A program made the position numbers and the translations under genes. 64,000 nt of DNA from Lysobacterales bacterium (lineage in GTDB: Bacteria; Pseudomonadota; Gammaproteobacteria; Xanthomonadales; SZUA-5), in contig JALHMH010000015.1 of NCBI GenBank assembly GCA_022844165.1, positions 26,263-90,262 on the forward strand, given 5' to 3'. This document shows, piece after piece, positions 19,266-64,000 of the stretch. The notes under the pieces are model-generated. The model searched no databases, was not told where the DNA came from, and saw only the letters and a list, made by a program, of their open reading frames with translations. The number at the start of each line of letters is the position of its first letter. Within the stretch, counting starts at the first letter, position 1.

Positions 19266-21206
19266 ATGACTTTGCGTCTATGGCGACGGCTGATGGCAGG
19301 TTGCGTTCTACTTCTTTCGCCAACGACGTTGATCGCGGCGGACCTGACAGCGATGACGCCAGGAGGTACTGAGTTCTTGCATCCGGCCGGCTGGCGACTC
19401 GAGCCATCGGAAGACATCGCGATACTGACCGCGCCTGAGGACAACGCGCGAATGGCAATCGCGCAGGTTGAAGCAGAGTCGGCCGATGCAGCGGTCGCCG
19501 TGGCGTGGGCGTTGTTGGGTGTGTCGCATACGCTGGACGAAGCGACCGATCGTGACGCGCGATTCGGTTGGACAGTGATGCGTGCCTACCGGTATCGGTC
19601 GAAGGGCGAGTCGGATCGGTTTGTCCAGGCACTCGCCATGCGCCAAGATGCGCATTGGTCGGTGCTGCTGCTGGATATCGCAGCGGCAACGATGAGTCGA
19701 CGCGAGAAGCAGGTGACGCGATTCATCCAGAGCGTTCGCGCACCTGGCTACCAGCCGCCGACGTTACGCGACCGCAAGCACAGAGTTCTGTCGAAAGCCG
19801 ATGTCGCGTCATTGGTCAGTTTCCTCGACGCTGCGCGCGAGACCTTCGGCATTCCCGGCATTGGTCTTGGGATCGTGCAAAACGACAAAGTGCTGTTCGC
19901 GGGCGGTTTGGGCGTCAGGCGCATCGGCCGGCCCGAAAAAGTCGATGCGCGTACGCTGTTCCTGACCGCGTCGATGACCAAACCACTGACTTCGCTGCTG
20001 CTCGCCAAACTGGTCGACGGCGGCAAACTGAACTGGGCGACACCTGCCCAACAGGTGTTGCCTGCTTTCCGTGTCGGCGATGCGCAGTTGTCCGAAAAAA
20101 TCGAAATTCGCCATCTACTGTGTTCTTGCACCGGCATTCCGTCTAAAGATATGGACTGGATCTTTGCTGGCGACACGATGGACGCCAATGACGTGCTGCG
20201 CATCTTGGGCGAGATCAAACCGGTCGCAGGTCATGGCGAGTTGTACCAGTATTCGAATCTGATGGCCGCCGCAGGGGGCATCGTCGGTGGCCACGCCGCC
20301 GATCCGAAGCAGCCGCTGGACGACGCTTACGATGTGGCGATGCAGCGTCTGGTCTTCGATCCGCTCGGCATGCGTGCCACCACTTTCGACGCAAAGAAAG
20401 CGCAGCGTGGCAATCATGCTCGGCCGCATGGCACGACGATCGACGGTGAAACCACCGAAGCAGCGATGGGTTTCAATGAAGCTGGTCACGCGATGCGCGC
20501 CGATGGCGGCGCGTGGAGCAACGTTGAGGACTTGCTCAAGTATTTGCGCATGGAGCTGGCGAGTGGTCGGCTGCCGGGGGGCAAACGCTATATCGCCAAA
20601 GTCCAACTGGATGAACGGTTGAAGCCGCAAGTTGCGAGAGGCGGTCCCGAGCAGTGGTACACAATGGGTCTAAAGACGGATCGTCAGTTGGGCATTCTGC
20701 AAGTGCTTCACGGCGGCAGCATGGCCGGCTACCAGGGCGAAGTCTTTTGGCTGCCCGAATACAATGCTGGATTCGTGCTGTTGATCAATGCCGATGCTGG
20801 GGGCCTGCTGCGTTCGCCGTTCGCGCGGCGCTTTGTTGAGATGCTCTTCGATACGGATCTTGGTGCGCGCAAGGAAATGGCGGACTTGCCGCAGATCATC
20901 GAGCGAGAGCGCGCGGAGTATCGCAAGGAGATGATTGTCCCGCTCGCGGCTATGGTCAGCGCCAATCTCGCGGAGCGTTATCGCCATCCAGAGCTGGGCG
21001 ACATCGTAGTGGTAAGGCGCGGCGTCGCAACGGAGCTGAATTTTGGCGGATGGTCGTCCGCTGTGGCGTCAGTCACCGATGGCGAGCGTGTTTTTGTCGA
21101 GACGATTTCGCCGGGCGTATCGGGCTACCGTTTCGAAGTTCGCCGTCGCCAGCTGGTTCTGGACGACGGCGAACGCGAATACATCTTTGCTGCCGAGGAA
21201 AAGTAG
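19266..21206 (+). CDS. Serine hydrolase, beta-lactamase/PBP4* family, secreted
   Basis: Signal peptide, 'SMTKPLTS' SxxK motif and 'YSNLMAAAGG' (YxN). Confidence 0.8.
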   Translation: MTLRLWRRLMAGCVLLLSPTTLIAADLTAMTPGGTEFLHPAGWRLEPSEDIAILTAPEDNARMAIAQVEAESADAAVAVAWALLGVSHTLDEATDRDARFGWTVMRAYRYRSKGESDRFVQALAMRQDAHWSVLLLDIAAATMSRREKQVTRFIQSVRAPGYQPPTLRDRKHRVLSKADVASLVSFLDAARETFGIPGIGLGIVQNDKVLFAGGLGVRRIGRPEKVDARTLFLTASMTKPLTSLLLAKLVDGGKLNWATPAQQVLPAFRVGDAQLSEKIEIRHLLCSCTGIPSKDMDWIFAGDTMDANDVLRILGEIKPVAGHGELYQYSNLMAAAGGIVGGHAADPKQPLDDAYDVAMQRLVFDPLGMRATTFDAKKAQRGNHARPHGTTIDGETTEAAMGFNEAGHAMRADGGAWSNVEDLLKYLRMELASGRLPGGKRYIAKVQLDERLKPQVARGGPEQWYTMGLKTDRQLGILQVLHGGSMAGYQGEVFWLPEYNAGFVLLINADAGGLLRSPFARRFVEMLFDTDLGARKEMADLPQIIERERAEYRKEMIVPLAAMVSANLAERYRHPELGDIVVVRRGVATELNFGGWSSAVASVTDGERVFVETISPGVSGYRFEVRRRQLVLDDGEREYIFAAEEK

Positions 21207-21250: not shown

Positions 21251-23032
21251 CTACGGCGCGCTGATCGTGCAACCCGTGCGCGGCACAAGGTTGACCACGC
21301 GACGCGGCTCGCTGACAAAGCTGCCGATGCGATAGCCGATCAGAGCCTCAGAGCAACTCAGGAACCGCACCGTTAGCGTGCCCACATCGCGAGTGACCGT
21401 CGGCGACGGTTGCCCGAAGGCGCCGCCCGTGCTTTCGTACACACTCAACACCGCTTCGCGATTGTCGAAGCCGCCCGGCTGAGCGCACACCGAGGAACCA
21501 ACTTCGGAGCGGCAACTATCCAGTGTGTACCACAGGTGGCGACCCGTGCCATCAGCGGCATAGGTGTACCAGGCGCCGACCAGACGGTTTTGACCCGGAA
21601 TGGCGTGGAAGCTCCAGCCCTGACCGTTAATCGCCGGATTAAACCAAAGACCGTCTGCGCTGGTATTGACGTTTGCTTCCAGAGGCACATCGCCGACGGG
21701 AACGGCCACGATGCCGAGCGGCTGGTTGATGCCATCGCCCACGGCGTACGCCGTCGCAATCGCCCCAGCCGGCAGATTCAGGGGCGCCAGGTCGATCAGA
21801 TTGGCGGCGCCGTCAGGCGTTGCCACTTTAACATCGAGCGTGCCCACGGGGAGCTCCAGATAGCCGCTGGCCGCGCCGAATGGAACGTTCGAGAGCCCGG
21901 CCACGACATCGCCGCCGTCCGTGCGAATCGATACGGCCGTGCCCTGCGGCGTGTTGGCGAACGGGGCGGTGTGCGCGATTCGCAGCGCATACGTTCCCGC
22001 CGGCGGTGTGGTGGTGCGGTCTTCAAAACGCTGCAGCGCGAGTGGCTGCAGTGACCCATTGCCGACAGCGGCAAGGGTGTAGCTACGGTTGCCGTCCAGC
22101 TCGACAGTTCCGCTGATGGCTGCCGACGTCGACCCCTGCGGGAATACCTGAATGGCATAAGCGCCCTGTGTCAACGTGAGCTCCGGCGAAAACTGCCGGA
22201 ATCGAAAATTGTTCAATATCTCATTGCCGTTCACAGTGACCCGAACGGCTGTGCCGGCGAGGGTTTGAGCAAAGGGTGCAAAGTGAGCAACGCGGACTTT
22301 GACCGGACCGATTGCGAATGTGGGTAGGGGATTGCTCGGCGCGGCGCCAGTGGTAATGGCGGTGATACCAGTCGAGTAGCCATTGGCGCCGCCGGTTGCC
22401 ACCAGCGTGAAAATGCGGCCTGCCGGTAACGACACGGGCTTGGGATCGATCAAGGTGGTGTTGCCATCGGGTGTGGCGATTCTCAGATCGTAGCTGGCCG
22501 CGGGCAACGTCAGATAGCCGCTGGCGCCACGGAATGGGACACGGGCGAGGCCGCCGACCACGCCACCTGCGTTATCGCGCACAGAAACTTCGGTCGCCGC
22601 CAGTGTGTTGGCAAAGGGCGCCGCATGCACCACGCGGACTTTGACCTGGCCGGCTGGCGGTGCGGCGTTATCGTCGGTCAGTGGCAGCAGGGCCAATGGC
22701 TGGTTGCCACCGTCGCCCACGGCAAGCACGGTGTAGTCGGTATTGTTGGCAAGATCTACCGAAGCACTGATCGCGACCGTCGTCGTGCCAGAAGGTAGAA
22801 CTTCAATGGTGTAACGGCCGGCTGGGCCCAGCGTGAGGTAGTCCGTGAATTGTCCGAACACGACATTCTGCAGCGCGACCGCGCCGTTGACGCGGATGCT
22901 GACGCTGGTGCCCTGCAACGTGGGGGCGAAGGGCGCGAAGTGGCCCACTGTTACGCGGGCGTTTGCGAGCACATCGGTGCTTACGGTGGCCAGCGCGATC
23001 AATGCGCCAGCTGTCCATCGTTGATAGTTCAT
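21251..23032 (-). CDS. Secreted protein with four tandem DUF4397 domains plus a C-terminal domain
   Basis: Signal peptide, then four repeats of the pattern 'V(R/T)V(V/A)H(A/F)APFA...V.V..NG...' ('ARVTVGHFAPFAP', 'VKVRVVHAAPFAN', 'VKVRVAHFAPFAQ', 'YALRIAHTAPFAN'). Confidence 0.7.
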   Translation of the reverse strand: MNYQRWTAGALIALATVSTDVLANARVTVGHFAPFAPTLQGTSVSIRVNGAVALQNVVFGQFTDYLTLGPAGRYTIEVLPSGTTTVAISASVDLANNTDYTVLAVGDGGNQPLALLPLTDDNAAPPAGQVKVRVVHAAPFANTLAATEVSVRDNAGGVVGGLARVPFRGASGYLTLPAASYDLRIATPDGNTTLIDPKPVSLPAGRIFTLVATGGANGYSTGITAITTGAAPSNPLPTFAIGPVKVRVAHFAPFAQTLAGTAVRVTVNGNEILNNFRFRQFSPELTLTQGAYAIQVFPQGSTSAAISGTVELDGNRSYTLAAVGNGSLQPLALQRFEDRTTTPPAGTYALRIAHTAPFANTPQGTAVSIRTDGGDVVAGLSNVPFGAASGYLELPVGTLDVKVATPDGAANLIDLAPLNLPAGAIATAYAVGDGINQPLGIVAVPVGDVPLEANVNTSADGLWFNPAINGQGWSFHAIPGQNRLVGAWYTYAADGTGRHLWYTLDSCRSEVGSSVCAQPGGFDNREAVLSVYESTGGAFGQPSPTVTRDVGTLTVRFLSCSEALIGYRIGSFVSEPRRVVNLVPRTGCTISAP

Positions 23033-47127: not shown

Positions 47128-48792
47128 ATGACTGAAAGTTTTGCCGAACTGTTTGAACAGAGCGAGCGATTGAGCAAGCTCAAGCCGGGCGCCATCGTGA
47201 CCGGTACCGTTGTCGAGATCCGCACAGACGTGGTGATCATCAACGCCGGTTTGAAATCCGAAGGCGTCGTGCCCATCGAGCAATTCCGCAATGAAGCGGG
47301 TGAGATCGATGTTGGCGTCGGCGATGAAGTGAAAGTAGCTCTCGATTCGCTTGAAAACGGTTTCGGCGAAACCGTGCTGTCCCGCGAAAAAGCCAAGCGC
47401 GCGATGGTGTGGGACGAACTCGAAGATGCCCAGTCAAAGGATCAAACGATCGTCGGCCGCATCAGTGGCAAGGTCAAAGGCGGCTTCACGGTCGACATCA
47501 AGGACATCCGCGCGTTCTTGCCGGGTTCCCTGGTCGATGTGCGCCCGGTCCGCGACCCGGTGTATCTGGAAGGCAAGGATCTCGAGTTCAAGATCATCAA
47601 GCTCGATCGCAAACGCAACAACGTCGTGGTCTCGCGTCGCGCCGTGGTCGAGAGCGAGTTCAGCGTCGAGCGCGAACAGCTGATGGAGAAGCTCAAGGAA
47701 GGCGCGGTGCTGAAGGGTGTGGTCAAGAACCTCACCGATTACGGCGCGTTCGTCGACCTGGGCGGCATCGATGGCTTGCTGCACATTACCGATATGGCGT
47801 GGAAGCGCGTGCGTCATCCCTCTGAAGTGGTCAACGTTGGCGACGAAATCGATGTGCGCGTGCTGCGCTTCGATCGCGAACGCAATCGCGTCTCGCTGGG
47901 TCTTAAGCAATTGGGTGATGATCCGTGGGTCAATATTTCCCGCCGTTATCCGCAGAGCACGCGTCTGTTCGGCAAAGTCTCCAACGTCACCGAATACGGT
48001 GCATTTGTCGAACTTGAGCCGGGCGTCGAAGGGCTGGTTCACGTTTCGGAAATGGATTGGACCAACAAGAACGTCAACCCGGCCAAGATTGTTTCTATCG
48101 GCGACGAAACCGAAGTGATGGTGCTCGATATCGATGAAGAGCGTCGCCGTATTTCGCTCGGCATGAAGCAGTGCACAAGCAATCCGTGGGAGGCGTTCGC
48201 AGGCAACTTCAAGAAGAACGATCGCGTCATCGGCACGATCAAATCGATCACGGATTTCGGCATTTTCGTTGGCTTGGAAGGCGGTATCGACGGTCTTGTT
48301 CACTTGTCGGATATTTCCTGGCAAGGCACCGGCGAGGATCTCGTCCGTAACTTCAAGAAGGGCGAAGAAATCAGTGCGGTCGTGCTGGCCGTCGATCCGG
48401 AGCGTGAGCGCATCTCGCTGGGGATCAAGCAGATGGAGCAAGATCCGTTCGGCAGCTTCATGGCCGCCAATCCGAAGGGCAGCATCGTCCATGGTGTGGT
48501 TCGCGAAGTCGATGCGCGCGGCGTGACGGTCGATCTGGCGGATGGCATTGAGGGCTATCTGCGTGCTGCGGATATCGCCAAGGAACGTGTCGACGATGCC
48601 ACCGTGCATTTCCGTGCAGGCGACAAGATCGAAGCTAAGTTCACGGGTCTCGATCGCCGCGGTCGCATCCTGCAATTGTCGATTCGCGCCAAGGAAGACG
48701 ATGAGTTGGCCGAAGCGCTTGAGGAATACCAGAGCACAGCGGCGGGCGTGACGAAGCTTGGCTCGCTCTTCAAAGAGCAATTGAATCGTTGA
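47128..48792 (+). CDS. rpsA: 30S ribosomal protein S1
   Basis: '[12 protein letters not shown]' followed by six S1 repeats ('GFTVDI', '[20 protein letters not shown]', and so on). Confidence 0.97.
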
Positions 48793-57233: not shown

Positions 57234-58409
57234 ATGAGGCGAATAGATCCGACGTCTCGCCTTGTGGCGAACGAAGTCACGATCGAATTCGAGTCGCAGG
57301 GAAACGTCACGCTTAAGCGTGGCGGTAACGCATTGAGCGTTTCGCCTGTAGCGCTGCGCGTGTTGGAGGCGTTCGCCGCGCCTGTTGTCTATAGCGATGC
57401 TGTCAGCCGTTTGCTCGCATCGTCGACCAAGGCGGGATTCATTACGATGACCGCCTTGATCGCCGAGCTGTTCGACCAGGGTTTTTTGGGCGAGACGGGG
57501 TCTGCACCGATGTCCGGCCGCTTCCACGGCGAAGTGGGTATGCATATCGCCATGCTCAACGATCGTGCGCGAACTCAAGCTTATCTGGACGCTATTGCCC
57601 GTATCGTGCGTCCGGGCGATGTGGTGATCGATCTGGGAACCGGCACGGGGGTCTTGGCCATGGCTGCCGCCCGAGCCGGCGCTTCGCGGGTCTACGCCAT
57701 CGAAGCCAGCAGCTTTGCCGACACGGCAGAAAAAACCGTCGCCGACAACGGCTATGCCGATGTGGTACAGATCGTACGCGGCTGGTCCACAGAAATCGAT
57801 CTCCCCGAACGCGCCGACGTGTTGCTCTCCGAGATTATCGGCAACGATCCTTTTGCCGAGGGCTTTCTGTTGTATCTGAGTGATGCGCGTCGGCGATTCT
57901 TGAAACCGGATGGGATCCTGTTGCCGGATCGTTTTGCGCTCGGAGGTTATTTCGCGAGCGCTTCGACCAGCGCGGTTTCCGAACGCCGCGTTGTCACCCA
58001 TGATGCCGTGCGTTGGCAACAAGTGTATGGGATGGATTTTTCCGAGTTTGCCGATCTCACGCGACGCACGACCATGCGACTGTATCTTCCGCCGTCGGTG
58101 AGTTCGACATGGCCGATGTGCAGTCCGGCACGCCTGCTTTGGGAGCATTGCTTCGCTCACGACCCGGAGGTTCAGTCTTTGTCCTTCGATTGGCAGATTG
58201 CCGATGAGGTCGAGCATCCGGCGTTCGTTTGGTATTTCGAGCTCGGATTTGGTACCCAGACGCTCAGCACCGATCCGCGCGTCGATTCGACATCGCACTG
58301 GAAGCTGCCGGTCGACTTGCCGCCCGCGGCAAGCAGGTATCGACTTGATCTGCGCACCAGCGCTGTTGCGCAGAAATTATTGAGTGAGTTCAAAGTGCTG
58401 TCACCGTAA
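57234..58409 (+). CDS. PRMT-like class I SAM-dependent methyltransferase (protein arginine methyltransferase homologue)
   Basis: Motif I 'VVIDLGTGTGVLAMAAARAGASRVYAIEAS', 'ADVLLSEIIGNDPFAEG' (double-E-loop-like) and 'STSHWKL' (THW-loop-like). The start is uncertain (57204 TTG or 57234 ATG). Confidence 0.65.
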   Translation: MRRIDPTSRLVANEVTIEFESQGNVTLKRGGNALSVSPVALRVLEAFAAPVVYSDAVSRLLASSTKAGFITMTALIAELFDQGFLGETGSAPMSGRFHGEVGMHIAMLNDRARTQAYLDAIARIVRPGDVVIDLGTGTGVLAMAAARAGASRVYAIEASSFADTAEKTVADNGYADVVQIVRGWSTEIDLPERADVLLSEIIGNDPFAEGFLLYLSDARRRFLKPDGILLPDRFALGGYFASASTSAVSERRVVTHDAVRWQQVYGMDFSEFADLTRRTTMRLYLPPSVSSTWPMCSPARLLWEHCFAHDPEVQSLSFDWQIADEVEHPAFVWYFELGFGTQTLSTDPRVDSTSHWKLPVDLPPAASRYRLDLRTSAVAQKLLSEFKVLSP

Positions 58410-60474
58410 TGCGGACGCCGTTCAGCGCCGCATTGCCGCTGGGCAGATCCAGATCCGACGGATCGCTGAGGTCGTTGTACGACGCGCCGGGTAGCACCTG
58501 AGCCCTTTGCAGTTTTATGCCATCGACCTGATGACCGAAGCCATGAGGCAGGCACGCGACGCCGCGCCGCAAACTGTCGTCGGCAATCACTTCCGTCACG
58601 ATGGCGCCGACGGCTGAACTTACCCGTACTCTGGCGCCATCGCCGATTCCGAGTGCCGCAAGATCTGCCGAGTGCATTTGCAACTGGTGTCGCGGTTTGC
58701 CTTTGATCAGGCGCGGTGCATTGTGCATCCAGCTGTTGTTGCTGCGGACGTCGCGGCGGCCGATCAACTGCAATCCGCCAGCGACTTCGCACGCGACCAG
58801 ACGCGCAAGATCCTGCACAATAAACTCGTGCCAACATTCGATCTGCCCGCTTGCAGTTTCCAATCGCGTCAACAACGTTGGTTCCAGTGGGCCGAGATCG
58901 AGGCCATGCACGGCACCCAGCAATGCATCGAAGTCGACGTTACCGGTCCGGCGGATCAGTGCTTCGATCAACTTTCTTGGTTCGGGCAATTCGTCGAACG
59001 CCTTTCCGGTCGCCATCGCGTAGGCTCGCGCGATGCCGCCGATGATTTGAAAGTCGGCACGTTCATTCGCGGCTTGTTCGCGCAGCGGCGTATTGATGCG
59101 GGCGATACGGCGCACGGCGAAGGCATTGAAGACCGAGTCGTAGTGATACTGCGTCAGGAACGAAGCAGGCGGAAGAATCAAATTCGCGTGGCGCGTCGTC
59201 TCGTTGATGTAAATGTCCATCGAGACCATCCATTCTAGTGATGCGAGTGCCGAGTCGAGACGCTGCCCGTTGGGTGTGGATAGCACTGGATTGCCGGCCG
59301 ACGTGAACACTGCACGCACTTGATCCTGGCCGGGCGTTTCGATTTCTTCGATCAATGCCGAGACCGGGAGTTCACCGGCGAATTCCGGCAACCCTCGAAC
59401 GCGACTATGCCAACGTGCCCGATTGCCGGGGGACGTGCCTTTGCCGGTGACCGGCATCACCGGATCGTTGGGCAACACGCCGCCGCATTTGTCGAGTTGC
59501 CCAAGGTAAATGTTGATCAGCTGTATGAGCCATTGGCAAAGCGTGCCGAAGGCTTGCGTTGACACGCCCATACGACCGTACACAGCGGCATCACGCTGCC
59601 CGTAAATCTCGCGCGCGATGCGATCGATGTCTTCATGCGGCAGGCCAGTCCGCTGCTCGATTTCATTGGCGGCAAAACCAGGCAACGCGTCCAGCGACTG
59701 CAAGAACCCGTTCAATCGCCCGCCGTAGTGTTCGAGCCGGGCCGGGCCGCAGCCGCGCAAGGCATCGAGCAGTGCGATCAAGAACACCGCGTCGCCACCG
59801 GGTTTGATGGGTAAGTGCCGCGAAGCTATTTCGGCCGTCTCGGTTCGGCGCGGATCCACGACGATCAAGGTGCCGCGTTGCGTCAGCGCTTTGAGACGTT
59901 TGGCGATGCCCGGTGCAGTCAGCAAACTGCCGTTCGAGGCTACGGGATTGGCACCCAGCATCAGCAAATAATCGCAGCGATCCAGGTCGACAATCGGGAT
60001 CAGGAACTGATGCCCATACATTGCCCAGGCAACGAGTTGATGTGGCCACTGGTCGACGCTGGAGGCAGAATAGACATTGCGCGTTTTCAGCAGCCGCAGC
60101 CACTGGGGAAGATAGGCAATGTGCCCAAAGTGGTGGACGTTCGGATTACCGACATAGGCGCCGACAGCGTTCGCGCCATATTTGGCCTGGACGGCAGCGA
60201 ACCCCTCGCCAGCGCGCTGCAGCGCTTCTTCCCATCCGATCTCGACGAATCGCCCGTTGACTTTTAGTCGTGGCGTATGCAATCGGTCCGGATCGGCTTC
60301 CAAATCCAGAATGGCGTTGCCCTTCGGGCAGATATGACCGCGGCTGAAAGGATCGCTGAGGTCGCCGCGAATGGCTGTGAGCCCTTCGTCCTGCGATTGA
60401 AATTCAAGGCCACAAATAGCCTCGCACAGTGGACAGGCGCGATACTGGCGAAACATGGCTGGACCTGAAGACAC
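58390..60474 (-). CDS. Molybdopterin (bis-MGD) oxidoreductase family protein
   Basis: N-terminal Cys cluster 'CPLCEAICGL...ICPKG' and the size and domain order of the DMSO-reductase superfamily. The substrate is unknown. Confidence 0.85.
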   Translation of the reverse strand: MSSGPAMFRQYRACPLCEAICGLEFQSQDEGLTAIRGDLSDPFSRGHICPKGNAILDLEADPDRLHTPRLKVNGRFVEIGWEEALQRAGEGFAAVQAKYGANAVGAYVGNPNVHHFGHIAYLPQWLRLLKTRNVYSASSVDQWPHQLVAWAMYGHQFLIPIVDLDRCDYLLMLGANPVASNGSLLTAPGIAKRLKALTQRGTLIVVDPRRTETAEIASRHLPIKPGGDAVFLIALLDALRGCGPARLEHYGGRLNGFLQSLDALPGFAANEIEQRTGLPHEDIDRIAREIYGQRDAAVYGRMGVSTQAFGTLCQWLIQLINIYLGQLDKCGGVLPNDPVMPVTGKGTSPGNRARWHSRVRGLPEFAGELPVSALIEEIETPGQDQVRAVFTSAGNPVLSTPNGQRLDSALASLEWMVSMDIYINETTRHANLILPPASFLTQYHYDSVFNAFAVRRIARINTPLREQAANERADFQIIGGIARAYAMATGKAFDELPEPRKLIEALIRRTGNVDFDALLGAVHGLDLGPLEPTLLTRLETASGQIECWHEFIVQDLARLVACEVAGGLQLIGRRDVRSNNSWMHNAPRLIKGKPRHQLQMHSADLAALGIGDGARVRVSSAVGAIVTEVIADDSLRRGVACLPHGFGHQVDGIKLQRAQVLPGASYNDLSDPSDLDLPSGNAALNGVRITVTAL

Positions 60475-60515: not shown

Positions 60516-60887
60516 AGGGAATCGCAGCACCGCGTCGCGCTCTGCGCGCGAGCCGTGAAGCTGTTGCGCCAACTACCGCGTGAGAGCGACTTCGTGTTGC
60601 TGGGCAGCCAACCGCGCACGCACTTCAACGCCGAATCGCCGCGCGCATTCTTGCAGCGCGATCTCGGAAAGACTGGCATCACCGCGCACGGGTTCCGCTC
60701 GTCCTTCCGCGATTGGGCCGTAGAAACCACCAGGCTCGGCAGCGACGTTGTCGAAATGGCGCTCGCGCACACCATCAAGAACAAAGTCGAAGCCGCCTAC
60801 CGTCGCGGCGATCTTTTCGCCAAGCGTGCGAAGCTCATGCAAGCGTGGGACGATTACCTGAGCCAGCGAAAATCCGCCGCCGCTTGA
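60516..60887 (+). pseudogene. 5'-truncated P4-type tyrosine integrase (C-terminal ~120 aa only)
   Basis: 'ITAHGFRSSFRDWAVETT...VVEMALAHTIKNKVEAAYRRGDLFAKRAKLMQAW' is the catalytic C-terminus (R..HxxR..Y) of P4-like integrases. The frame is closed by a stop at 60513-60515. The roughly 280 N-terminal codons are absent. Confidence 0.8.
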
Positions 60888-60903
60888 CGAACACAACGAG
60901 CGA

Positions 60904-61719
60904 TCAAAGCTTGCCCTTGATGTAGATCGCTGCCTTCTCGATCTCGGGGAACATCGAGCTGTCATTGATCGCCATTCGGTCTAGTTCGTCGCAGATGAGC
61001 TCCTTCTTGTTCCCATTGATGTGTATTCGCTCCACCGCGATCCCATCAGGCGGTGCTGATTCAAGGTCAACATTCTGACCGAGAAGAATGAACGCACCGG
61101 ACTGGGCGAGGATGCGCCTGTTGTTGAGCTTTGGCTTTACTACTATCGCCGTCTGGAGATGCTCCGGTTTGATCTCTGCACGAAAGTGCGGTTTTTCTGC
61201 CCGAATGAACTGAAGCAATCTATCGACTGGCGTTTGCGAGTTGAAATCATGCCCCGTTTGCGTGAAATCGATTGCCCTCTTTTCGCTGTCGCTCAAATGC
61301 GCCAGGTTCGCGATACAACTTGCGGTATCGCTGTCGTAGTACTTGACCAAGTCTCGGTTAATACGGAATACGACGACCTCGCCGGGCTTGCCTGGGTCAT
61401 CTTTAGCGGCAAAGTAAAGGCCAGCAAGCGGATTCCATGTCACGTCAAGTAGCCTCGTTGGCAGCGAGTAGTGTTGAACTCGTGCCAACTGCTCAAGCGT
61501 GGTCCCATCTTGAGCAAAATCGCTTGGATGTGAAGCGACCAACTCGCGAAGAATCTGATGCTCGGCGTCACGAAACCGCGCCTCCCGAAGGACGGACGGG
61601 ACGAGCTTGAATTTGATTCGATCTGAGTGGCCCCGATAGAGCAACACTTCGTCATTGACCGGTTTGACCTGACGAATCTTGCGAACAAAACCTTCAAGGC
61701 TGGAAATCGTCTGGGTCAT
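60904..61719 (-). CDS. FRG-domain protein
   Basis: 'LLYRGHSD', 'ARVQHYSLPTRLLDVTWNPLAGLYFA' and 'RILAQSGAFILLG' match the FRG-domain core as I remember it. Confidence 0.7.
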   Translation of the reverse strand: MTQTISSLEGFVRKIRQVKPVNDEVLLYRGHSDRIKFKLVPSVLREARFRDAEHQILRELVASHPSDFAQDGTTLEQLARVQHYSLPTRLLDVTWNPLAGLYFAAKDDPGKPGEVVVFRINRDLVKYYDSDTASCIANLAHLSDSEKRAIDFTQTGHDFNSQTPVDRLLQFIRAEKPHFRAEIKPEHLQTAIVVKPKLNNRRILAQSGAFILLGQNVDLESAPPDGIAVERIHINGNKKELICDELDRMAINDSSMFPEIEKAAIYIKGKL

Positions 61720-61816
61720 CTTTGTGCAATGCTCAGCCGCGCGGCTCGCTGCTTACAATACTGCCGAATTTGGTTCGTCACCTGTAGCAAAGACGAAGAA
61801 GGCAGCGTGATCCGAG

Positions 61817-62497
61817 ATGCGCAAGATCGGGACGAGGAATCCGACGCACACAATCCGACCTGAGGCGCTAGCCACATCTCCACGAAATTGGGATGTGCTT
61901 GAAAGGAGTCTCAACGATATCTGCCCAGGTCATGGAGCTTCGGTCTTTTCGAAGGTCGCTCCGAAGGTCGACTGGCTTAGGGATTGCGTAACGTTCGCCC
62001 AGTACGGACCCTCGCCAAAGGAGCGCAAGCTTTACTGCGAGCAATTCGCAAAAGCCGCGCAAGACTTGCTCGCGCTTCTTGAGATTAGACAGGTCCAAGC
62101 TCAGTCCGGAAGGCGACATTTTCATCCGGGGTTCGTCGACATCCTGCACGCTGCCGGCGACCGGGCAAAAAAAGTTGACACTGAAGCGGAGGAATTTGTT
62201 CGCCTTCTCCTGGAAGTTGCAAATCGCGCCACATCGTCTCCTCACCGCTCGCGCTTGTCGATTGATCGAGAAGTTGTATCCCTAGCGAAGATCGTCATCG
62301 GTCTGCCGCCACATGAAAAGCCCGCGACCGTGCGCAACGACAAATACGGGGAGCCGCTCTCTGAAGATCAACATTTGCTGCTGGTCTTGCTGAAGCACGC
62401 TGGCTTTCCAGGTTCGCTCTCTCAGGCAAGCCTAGCCAAGTACTTGGCGAAGGCGCGCAAGACGGTGAATGGAAAAAGTAGGGTCAGTTGCACCTGA
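61817..62497 (+). CDS. Hypothetical protein (island cargo, divergent from the FRG gene)
   Basis: A 226-aa ORF with no recognised motif. Confidence 0.4.
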   Translation: MRKIGTRNPTHTIRPEALATSPRNWDVLERSLNDICPGHGASVFSKVAPKVDWLRDCVTFAQYGPSPKERKLYCEQFAKAAQDLLALLEIRQVQAQSGRRHFHPGFVDILHAAGDRAKKVDTEAEEFVRLLLEVANRATSSPHRSRLSIDREVVSLAKIVIGLPPHEKPATVRNDKYGEPLSEDQHLLLVLLKHAGFPGSLSQASLAKYLAKARKTVNGKSRVSCT

Positions 62498-62565
62498 CTT
62501 TTGGTTTTGCCTTCGGCGTTCTGGATGGTCAACACTCTCTCCGCACACCGACACGGAGACCGTTG

Positions 62566-62808
62566 ATGCACACGATGACCACACACGGGGCAACCGAACA
62601 ACAGATCGTCCAGCGGCGCTTGATTACCGGCCCGGTGGCTTGCCAGATTCTCGGTCTTGGAGAAACGAAGCTTTGGCAATTGGTACAACGCGGCGACATC
62701 ACCCGAATCCAACTCACGCGCAAGATGACCCGGTACGATCTCGCCGAAGTCAACGCGCTCGCCGATAGCTGGATCGCCGCAGCGAAGGCGCGGAAGGTGG
62801 CCGTATGA
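62566..62808 (+). CDS. AlpA/excisionase-family HTH DNA-binding protein
   Basis: 'LITGPVACQILGLGETKLWQLVQRGDITRIQLTRKMTRYDLAEV' is a MerR-superfamily AlpA-like HTH. GGAG lies 7 nt upstream of ATG 62566. Confidence 0.65.
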   Translation: MHTMTTHGATEQQIVQRRLITGPVACQILGLGETKLWQLVQRGDITRIQLTRKMTRYDLAEVNALADSWIAAAKARKVAV

Positions 62809-63038
62809 GGGAGCACGGCGATTCAATCGGGCTGGCGCCTTGCGAACTATTCCCCACGGCACGCCATCTGGTGTGCGTGGTGGCTACTGCATGCGACTCT
62901 GCAAGCGCGACTTGTGAAAAGCTGGCGCAGATGATGGCGCCTGAACTTGCCGAGCAACTGGCCGAACAGGGCAGAGAAATCACCCGAGCCGCCAATTGCG
63001 CGCGCCTGTCCCTCTTGCGCGAGCAACGCGCAGTGTGA
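62805..63038 (+). CDS. Hypothetical small protein
   Basis: A 77-aa ORF whose ATG overlaps the alpA-like stop. No motif recognised. Confidence 0.3.
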   Translation: MREHGDSIGLAPCELFPTARHLVCVVATACDSASATCEKLAQMMAPELAEQLAEQGREITRAANCARLSLLREQRAV

Positions 63039-63499
63039 GTGTCAAGCCGATGGAATCAAAGAGGAAACGCAACAAGAGTAAGCACGATTCGGGCTGGTCC
63101 GAAATCAAAGGTGGGCAGGCTTTCGTCATTCCGGTGGCGTTGCTCAAGCACGACAATTTTCGCCGCCTAAGTCCTCACGCCTGCAAACTCCTGTTTGACC
63201 TTGGTCGCCAGTTCACCGGGTCAAACAACGGCTATCTCCACCCCGGCATCAAGGTCTTGCGAGAACAGGGATGGCACTCTTCGCATACGATTGTCAAAGC
63301 GATTCGCGAGCTTCGACATTACCGAATCCTGACGCAAACCGTCCAGGGCGGAAAGAACCGGCCTAGCTACTACGGTTTCACGTTCCGAAAAATCACCGAG
63401 AATCCCAAACGGCCGTTCGACCGACCGATGCCGATCAAACAGCCTACCGACGAGTGGGAAACGCCGGCAGAAGCTTTTCCTTCCGGGAAAAATCCTTAG
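63035..63499 (+). CDS. Hypothetical winged-helix-like protein (possible replication/regulatory protein of the island)
   Basis: The basic N-terminus and 'SSHTIVKAIRELRHYRILTQ' suggest a wHTH. The start is either GTG 63035 (GTGA overlap with the upstream stop) or ATG 63050. Confidence 0.4.
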   Translation: MSVKPMESKRKRNKSKHDSGWSEIKGGQAFVIPVALLKHDNFRRLSPHACKLLFDLGRQFTGSNNGYLHPGIKVLREQGWHSSHTIVKAIRELRHYRILTQTVQGGKNRPSYYGFTFRKITENPKRPFDRPMPIKQPTDEWETPAEAFPSGKNP

Positions 63500-63507
63500 T
63501 GCAATAG

Positions 63508-63643
63508 GTGCACAAAATTAGAGCAGCCACTGCTCAAGTCTGCCTGCGGTTTGTGCTCTCACTGCACAAGATTTCGCCAGCTTGTGCATTACGTGCCCTA
63601 GTCCGCACGACTTTGAGAGGTGCGTTTGTGCAGCGACTGCACA
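63508..63643. promoter_or_regulatory. Cluster of TTGTGC(A)/(T)GCACAA half-sites and inverted repeats (operator or iteron-like)
   Basis: TTGTGC-N7-GCACAA at 63551-63569. TGTGCAG-cga-CTGCACA at 63627-63643. Extra half-sites near 63508-63517 and 63582-63588. The region is noncoding and lies between convergent ORFs. Confidence 0.35.
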
Positions 63644-63722
63644 GTTATGCATCTTATGCCATACCAATGCTTGAAGATCGGGATCAGGCACCGTTGAATC
63701 GGTTCGCAGCCGATGCCAAAAC

Positions 63723-64000
63723 TCAAGCCCTAACCTTCGCTTGCATCGCTTCGCTTGTATCGCGGCTATCGTCGGCGGATTGCTTAGGCTCGGTCGCCGA
63801 CGAAGGATCGAGCACCGGGAGCAGGTAGCTGTTCCAGTTGCTAGCGGCCAAGTTCTCCCAATACGACTGGCCGTCCTCCGCGTCGCGCTTCGCATACCAC
63901 GGGTGCCGCACGTACCGCTCTCTCAATCGTGCTGCGCCCAACGCCAATTTCTGGGCGGAGGTTAGGTTCTTGAGATGCTCGGGAATCTCTCGCGTCGTCA
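63723..64000 (-). CDS. Hypothetical protein, 5'-partial (continues beyond the window end)
   Basis: The minus-strand frame is open from nt 64000 down to the TGA at 63723-63725 ('...EIPEHLKNLTSAQKLALGAARLRERYVRHPWYAKRDAEDGQSYWENL...'). No family recognised. Confidence 0.35.
   Translation of the reverse strand, partial: TTREIPEHLKNLTSAQKLALGAARLRERYVRHPWYAKRDAEDGQSYWENLAASNWNSYLLPVLDPSSATEPKQSADDSRDTSEAMQAKVRA

Follow-up and report, generated by a model that had tools for sequence, protein, structure and literature searches.

The locus described here raises the question of whether two adjacent genes that look like a unit actually form one. In a 64,000 nt stretch of a Lysobacterales bacterium genome (contig JALHMH010000015.1), referred to below as the window, a gene encoding a 271-aa FRG-domain protein and a gene encoding a 226-aa protein are transcribed divergently from positions 60904–62497, between a P4-type integrase gene (int) and an alpA-like regulatory gene. 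An earlier reading made without database searches (the sequence-only reading) proposed that the two genes constitute a candidate accessory, possibly anti-phage, module. Our analysis favours a different explanation, to which we assign a probability of about 0.72: that the FRG gene is an independent defence candidate, and that the 226-aa gene is unrelated to it, both being situated at the left end of a decayed, probably mobilizable, integrative element.

The FRG gene and its relationship to the 226-aa gene

The features that bear directly on the question are listed here, with the open reading frame abbreviated to ORF:

60904–61719, minus strand: FRG-domain protein of 271 aa, intact, a member of PDC-S15 (Pfam, PADLOC, homologues and alignment)
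60886–61719, minus strand: extent of the FRG cassette, comprising the ORF and 18 bp past its stop codon (blastn against the closest relatives)
61720–61816, no strand: divergent intergenic spacer of 97 bp, unique to this locus; homology to FRG relatives stops at 61719, and there is none to the related element L001 (hereafter the sister element)
61817–62497, plus strand: protein of 226 aa, predicted to be all-helical, a near-ORFan located just before alpA, its one homologue being placed equivalently in the sister element
62480–62501, plus strand: hairpin resembling a terminator and spanning the stop codon of the 226-aa gene (consensus scan only)

The layout given by the sequence-only reading was accurate. 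The two genes are divergent, the spacer is 97 bp in length (61720–61816), and the G+C content of both (FRG, 0.526; 226-aa ORF, 0.555) is lower than that of the window (0.595) and of the int fragment (0.633). The 271-aa ORF is exactly as described, with the motifs YRGH at residues 28–31, QHYSLPTRLLDVT at residues 82–94 and ILAQSGAF at residues 203–210, and it passes the Pfam FRG model (PF08867) with 56.6 bits against a gathering cutoff of 25 (E=5e-15, residues 26–107).

The FRG protein also proved to belong to a catalogued family. The PADLOC model PDLC04933, which represents PDC-S15, matched residues 3–270 to profile positions 7–279 of 286 (E=4.4e-98); a second PDC-S15 model, PDLC04936, matched with E=1.3e-96, and in all 12 further PDC-S15 sub-models matched. 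The view that no named system is represented at this locus consequently fails for the FRG protein; the 226-aa protein has no PADLOC match. The window copy is a new member of an already catalogued candidate family, and not a new kind of system. The assignment of FRG as a solo gene and a member of PDC-S15 is, in our judgement, close to secure.

Homologues of the FRG protein are widespread: 2,488 were found at E≤1e-3, and a length of exactly 271 aa is common among them. They come from Proteobacteria, Nitrospirae, Acidobacteriota, Verrucomicrobia, Bacteroidota and other groups, as well as from phages. An alignment of 81 sequences was made from homologues 38–73% identical to the window protein, including short forms, long forms and two phage copies. 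Forty-nine positions are at least 97% conserved in this alignment, and the window protein carries the consensus residue at 49/49. These positions include R29-G30-H31, E53, E59, D71, R80, Q82-H83, P87-T88-R89, D92 and N96, and, on the C-terminal side, D129-S130-D131, N138, E175-K176, R202, Q206, G208 and K239. The FRG gene is intact, because all of the residues conserved at this level are present.

Conservation in the alignment spans the whole ~270 aa, extending beyond the third of the protein covered by Pfam, and no Pfam model covers the C-terminal half (residues ~125–271). The window protein resembles the Pfam FRG (Frg) clade, in that it passes the gathering score and carries the eponymous conserved motifs, but differs from the Pfam model (residues 26–107) in that the conserved unit is the entire protein. 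An ORF could be called for 78 of the genome homologues, which divide equally into short (39, of 264–341 aa) and long (39, of 429–487 aa) forms. Unlike this long half of its relatives, the window protein lacks an N-terminal extension of ~160 aa. The extension, found in the long forms (L019–L086, for example L056:9524–10825 and L084:5646–6977), has no Pfam match and possibly serves as a sensor domain.

Co-occurrence of the two gene families was assessed at 80 genome loci, covering 10 kb on either side of FRG. A relative of the 226-aa protein was found by tblastn at none of the 80 loci, and an HMM (hidden Markov model) search at maximum sensitivity found none among 558 FRG neighbours. These neighbours, which represent the four genes on each side of FRG at 78 loci, fell into 517 clusters, the largest of which had four members; there was no conserved neighbour, and the size, strand and spacing of neighbours all varied. 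Conversely, the element containing the single homologue of the 226-aa protein, designated P0002, carries no FRG gene. The two families do not occur together elsewhere, an outcome that the sequence-only reading had itself regarded as counting against a module.

The boundaries of the FRG cassette can be seen at the DNA level. The FRG locus is 83% identical to loci L087 and L088 over 60886–61719 only, and 74% identical to L095 over 60910–61725. Because the shared DNA goes no further than the FRG start codon, FRG arrived unaccompanied by the spacer or the 226-aa gene.

An accessory or defence module of two divergent genes, under common control from the 97 bp spacer, would account for the adjacency and orientation of the genes, for their G+C content being lower than that of their surroundings, and for their common location between int and alpA. 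Set against this are the absence of any 226-aa relative at FRG loci (0/80) and among FRG neighbours (0/558), a 226-aa family of two members in ~15 billion proteins, the other of which sits in an element without FRG, and cassette homology that stops at the FRG start codon, leaving the spacer and the 226-aa gene outside the transferred segment. In addition, the 226-aa gene was evidently present before FRG arrived, given its identical position in the sister element. We consider the module to be highly improbable, and on these comparisons the FRG and 226-aa genes appear to be two functionally independent genes.

The shared promoter region attributed to the spacer was an assumption: a sigma-70 consensus scan of 61720–61816, which is insensitive, found no promoter, and hence none upstream of FRG. 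A search for repeats in the spacer returned short, chance-level matches only. The spacer contains a perfect 12 bp GC-rich palindrome, AGCCGCGCGGCT, at 61735–61746, which could be an operator; the occurrence of such a palindrome is within chance for a 64 kb window of 60% G+C.

A separate observation concerns the closest FRG relative, P0004, which is 87% identical to the window protein in amino acid sequence and 83% identical at the nucleotide level. It is followed by a co-directional gene of 225 aa, located 119 bp downstream, in two differing neighbourhoods (L087:5085–5762 and L088:3211–3888; also L089–L094). The 225-aa gene has a weak, sub-threshold match to DUF5677 and is absent from other FRG loci. 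We considered whether it was a diverged counterpart of the 226-aa gene, and rejected this on the basis of a blastp E value >10 and its absence from all other FRG loci. The 225-aa gene could be a lineage-specific partner of FRG or merely a co-travelling gene.

The 226-aa gene in the element family

The second ORF (61817–62497, plus strand) had been reported to lack any recognizable motif, and this was upheld in four libraries, with no match to the 226-aa protein in Pfam, NCBIfam, PADLOC or PHROGs. A word-indexed search of 5.8 billion clusters, representing ~15 billion proteins, identified P0002 (227 aa, 43% identity) as the sole homologue, and when 1.84 billion representatives were searched exhaustively with HMMER, using a two-sequence profile, P0002 was again the only relative recovered. 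The two proteins align from end to end, N-terminus included, and share the start of the protein, the motifs CPGHG and HPGF-D--HAAGD, and a basic C-terminal tail, SLAKYLAKA-K. The end-to-end alignment with P0002, together with the same position of the two genes in their elements, shows that the 226-aa ORF is a real gene.

The DNA of the two genes can no longer be aligned, despite their equivalent positions. The 226-aa protein has diverged to 43% identity, between an int fragment and an alpA gene that retain 91 and 77% protein identity, respectively, to their counterparts in the sister element. The 226-aa gene thus keeps its place in this element family, to which it is specific, while its sequence diverges quickly, and it may belong either to the backbone or to the accessory complement just upstream of alpA. 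Our best guess is that its product is an element-specific regulatory, maintenance or accessory protein, and not a partner of FRG.

Structural prediction added little to this picture. The AlphaFold2 (AF2) model of the 226-aa protein is all-helical, with a predicted local distance difference test score (pLDDT) of 63 and confident modelling at residues ~25–60 and ~148–220 only. A fold search with Foldseek returned coiled-coil noise and no fold match, and a search of Protein Data Bank (PDB) sequences gave chance matches only. One further candidate homologue, P0123 (889 aa, E=1e-4), was dismissed as helical low-complexity sequence, the similarity being distributed over eight repeated stretches.

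Defence context and predicted activity of the FRG protein

The PDC collection comprises 145 untested single- or multi-gene candidates, chosen on the grounds that members lie within BREX, DISARM or type I restriction-modification (RM) loci (Payne et al. 2024, 10.1101/2024.01.29.577857), and PDC candidates were still called uncharacterized in 2025 (PMC12482510). A preprint ranks PDC-S15 with the top predictors of phage infectivity in P. aeruginosa, a correlative result. The window FRG gene resembles PDC-S15 in its full-length HMM match, in being a solo gene and in having relatives in defence islands. It departs from the typical PDC embedding in that it adjoins an integrase remnant and does not lie inside BREX, DISARM or RM.

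The relatives of FRG are found among defence genes. A 73%-identical FRG gene (L007) lies between genes for Septu PtuA (E=2e-145) and Wadjet JetA (E=8e-195). The 87%-identical P0004 is found in the context of either PDC-S33 (a RelA_SpoT protein, E=2e-103) or PDC-S19 (DUF3644, E=8e-138), and the surroundings of an 81%-identical homologue contain fragments of transposase genes, together with Replic_Relax, Nmad3 and Cas9 genes. The immediate neighbours of FRG at the 78 loci include LmuB (three times), PDC-S06, C5 methylases, GmrSD, RES, a CAP12-type TIR protein and SLOG. In the ±1 positions, 242 PADLOC families were matched in 143 proteins (E≤1e-10), compared with 47 families in 77 proteins, mostly from one methylase, for ORFs located >7.5 kb from FRG at the same loci. 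This corresponds to an enrichment of ~2.8-fold per neighbouring protein, a crude estimate that counts families and not genes and is based on our own ORF calls.

FRG homologues also match phrog_4962 (E=2e-38) and eight phage records. In Peduovirus P22H1, gp44 is a long-form FRG protein encoded after gpA at the right genome end, in a cos-proximal position corresponding to the locus described as a P2 defence hotspot (PMC9122126). The phage-borne copies (P22H1 gp44 and that of Escherichia phage PhiR11_1; L099:320–1684) are long forms.

The FRG gene is indeed cargo beside the integrase, acquired horizontally. An anti-phage role is the function that we would predict for it, with some confidence though well short of certainty. 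The anti-phage candidacy proposed for the pair is therefore retained for FRG alone, as a PDC-S15 member with defence-rich relatives, and does not extend to the 226-aa gene.

Regarding the activity of FRG, the Frg proteins have been described as a clade of the ADP-ribosyltransferase (ART) superfamily and as predicted NADase-type antiviral effectors, and RES toxins have been placed in the same superfamily (Aravind group, PMC9503650). The AF2 model of the FRG protein is of good quality (pLDDT 86.6, predicted template-modelling score 0.83). Its best Foldseek match in the PDB is the RES toxin MbcT (PDB 6fkg), with E=0.045, a probability of 0.47 and template-modelling (TM) scores of 0.28/0.39. Other ART-fold matches (VPA0770, PDB 8gug; Arr; PARP2; the TASOR pseudo-PARP) are interspersed with unrelated dehydrogenases, and in BFVD the best match was to a polyvalent protein of a phage (E=3e-3). 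RES-domain NAD+-degrading toxins (MbcT-MbcA and VPA0770) are hence the closest, though sub-threshold, structural neighbours of the FRG model, from which the window protein differs in having no significant sequence or fold score against them, no cognate antitoxin gene and ~100 additional residues. The ART assignment is weakly consistent with the present data and draws on the literature, and NAD+ or ADP-ribose chemistry is a tentative prediction.

The scenario that we favour would begin with the recombination of a single-gene FRG cassette into the integrase-proximal slot, clipping the 3' end of int. FRG would be a one-protein sensor-effector of ~270 aa with an ART-type fold, which on phage infection would consume NAD+ or transfer or derivatize ADP-ribose, and this activity would abort the infection. 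The conserved polar residues named in this proposal are R29, H31, E53, H83, R89, D92, D129/D131, E175/K176, R202 and Q206. We speculate, with no great confidence, that the 271-aa protein is a free-standing immune protein that aborts infection alone, with an ART-type core at residues ~25–125 and a hitherto undescribed C-terminal half (residues ~125–271), conserved to the same degree, acting as a sensor or regulatory region.

Several observations weigh against this interpretation. No experimental evidence for any FRG protein was found in the literature searched. The ART-fold signal is below significance, as Foldseek returned nothing from the PDB at E≤0.001, and the FRG protein had no match among PDB sequences. 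The spacer scan offers no candidate promoter for FRG, and the neighbourhood enrichment is approximate in the way described above. Moreover, the occurrence of the 225-aa gene after the closest FRG relative in both of its contexts makes it conceivable that a lineage-specific helper exists and is absent here, and the host element is a remnant, such that FRG could be a decaying passenger.

Two other explanations for FRG were weighed against the defence reading. FRG might be the toxin of a toxin–antitoxin (TA) or addiction system that stabilizes the mobile element, a possibility that gains from the RES-family TA toxins being the top fold matches, from the presence of RES genes among FRG neighbours, and from the antidote-type helix-turn-helix (HTH) genes, matching dnstrm_HI1420, that fill the corresponding slot in L001 and in the int remnant next to it. 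An antitoxin-sized gene conserved next to FRG would be expected in this case, and the 78 loci contain none; no neighbour of FRG recurs at these loci as it would in a RES-Xre system, and Pfam gave no HTH or Xre match for the 226-aa protein. FRG also far exceeds RES toxins in size, its conserved unit being ~270 aa. We regard a toxin as unlikely. It is likewise unlikely, and slightly more so, that FRG is an inert passenger, preserved by chance in a moribund element, unexpressed and without current function in this host. An integrase truncated at both ends, the loss of the primase module seen in the sister element, and the lack of a consensus promoter or any obvious ribosome-binding site upstream of FRG would all fit a passenger of this kind. 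The gene nonetheless retains a full-length frame and every family-invariant residue, and is identical to its nearest relative at 87% of protein and 83% of DNA positions with no frameshift, and the sigma-70 consensus scan is insensitive.

The FRG family is widespread and catalogued as a defence candidate, and the window copy represents a minimal, 271-aa, single-ORF example with defined invariant polar residues. If the protein is indeed a free-standing immune protein, it would provide a first mechanism for the FRG/PDC-S15 family, including the long forms in P2-like prophage hotspots. The main value of the present analysis is negative, in that a false two-gene 'system' is not propagated and the neighbour of FRG is seen to be an unrelated near-ORFan.

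The host element and the integrase-proximal slot

The remaining features of the element, which is visible for 3.5 kb only before the window ends at 64000, are as follows:

60525–60887, plus strand: 3'-terminal part of a tyrosine integrase gene of P4 type, a pseudogene covering residues 299–412 of a 433-aa relative (NCBIfam, blastn and tblastn)
62566–62808, plus strand: AlpA-like HTH_17 regulator or excisionase (Pfam HTH_17, E=5e-4; phrog_66 excisionase/regulator)
62996–63499, plus strand: protein of 167 aa, weakly similar to replication initiator O (phrog_678, E=0.007)
63705–64000, no strand: region in which backbone homology to the sister element resumes (blastn, 80% to L001 11392–11670, downstream of its primase)

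The int reported by the sequence-only reading does adjoin FRG, but is a pseudogene fragment, and the window element contains no intact integrase. The fragment of 114 codons corresponds to positions 295–395 of 413 in NCBIfam NF007246, and is 92% identical at the nucleotide level to L001 7227–7579 (window 60528–60880) and 91% identical over residues 299–412 by tblastn. It lacks the 5' ~298 codons, and no other int pieces were found by tblastn in the 64 kb window. At the FRG junction (60881–60885), other sequence takes the place of the last ~17 codons, the alignment diverging after 60880. A recurrent recombination boundary at 60880 across three int copies was considered and rejected, as the alignment shows that the boundary is specific to the window. 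Because the integrase is reduced to a 114-codon fragment, the element is a fixed, decayed remnant of an integrative element. No tRNA or att site was seen near the int fragment; ~50 bp separate its beginning from the start of the neighbouring molybdopterin oxidoreductase gene (58390–60474, minus strand).

P0002 is encoded on 14 metagenomic contigs, all with one arrangement (for example L001–L006). The order in L001 is int (433 aa), an HTH_3/dnstrm_HI1420 gene (HigA-like), the 227-aa gene, which starts 14 bp after the HTH gene, a 71-aa HTH_17 gene (alpA), a 54-aa ORF, a Zn-ribbon primase gene and a D5_N/DUF5906 helicase gene, with MobC and relaxase genes further on. The slot occupied by FRG in the window is that of the HigA-like HTH gene in the sister element. 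The window alpA, for which the listed ORF start is 62488 and an internal ATG is the likely start, is 77% identical to L001 alpA in amino acid sequence and 78% identical at the nucleotide level (62637–62808). Apart from PDC-S15, no PADLOC matches were found in the visible part of the window element or in the sister element. By analogy with L001, the window element is probably of the integrative mobilizable type.

In window 62805–63700, ORFs of 77 and 167 aa stand in place of the Zn-ribbon primase and D5_N/DUF5906 helicase genes found at L001:9208–11360, and tblastn with the L001 primase genes found no match in the 64 kb window.

The placement of the pair in a P4-like hotspot between int and alpA was imprecise. 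The published defence hotspot of P4 satellites lies between psu and int, and that of P2-like phages between gpA and gpQ, proximal to cos (Rousset et al. 2022, PMC9122126), and the element is closer to a mobilizable element with MobC and a relaxase than to a P4-like satellite. As in P4-like satellites, the variable cargo directly adjoins a P4-type integrase. Unlike these satellites, the element shows no psu, sid or delta and no alpha-type primase in 60525–64000, the 3.5 kb of it within the window, and the sister element encodes a primase of the D5_N/DUF5906 kind along with MobC and a relaxase.

A metagenome scan of the integrase family recovered relatives of ≤58% identity only, which are too distant for alpA detection by tblastn. 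When the first three ORFs after int in these distant relatives were scanned with Pfam and PADLOC, AlpA/HTH_17 was present in a minority, and ~3/112 of the int-proximal ORFs matched PADLOC. In the distant relatives (L101–L180, for example L133:8196–8849, L143:6970–7638 and L166:3706–4500), the gene between int and AlpA is usually co-directional and encodes ~150–260 aa; these ORFs have no family match and are different at almost every locus, as in a hypervariable slot.

Window proteins outside the element that were looked up (for example 19266–21206, 21251–23032 and 47128–48792) are all singletons at 90% clustering; the source genome is without close sequenced relatives in the collection. Finally, L001 contains a second, degenerate int 3' end (L001:4713–5432) upstream of the intact element, 95% identical to window 60824–60880; behind it lie a 74-aa ORF and a further dnstrm_HI1420 HTH gene, an arrangement suggestive of repeated insertion at one site, in tandem or in series.

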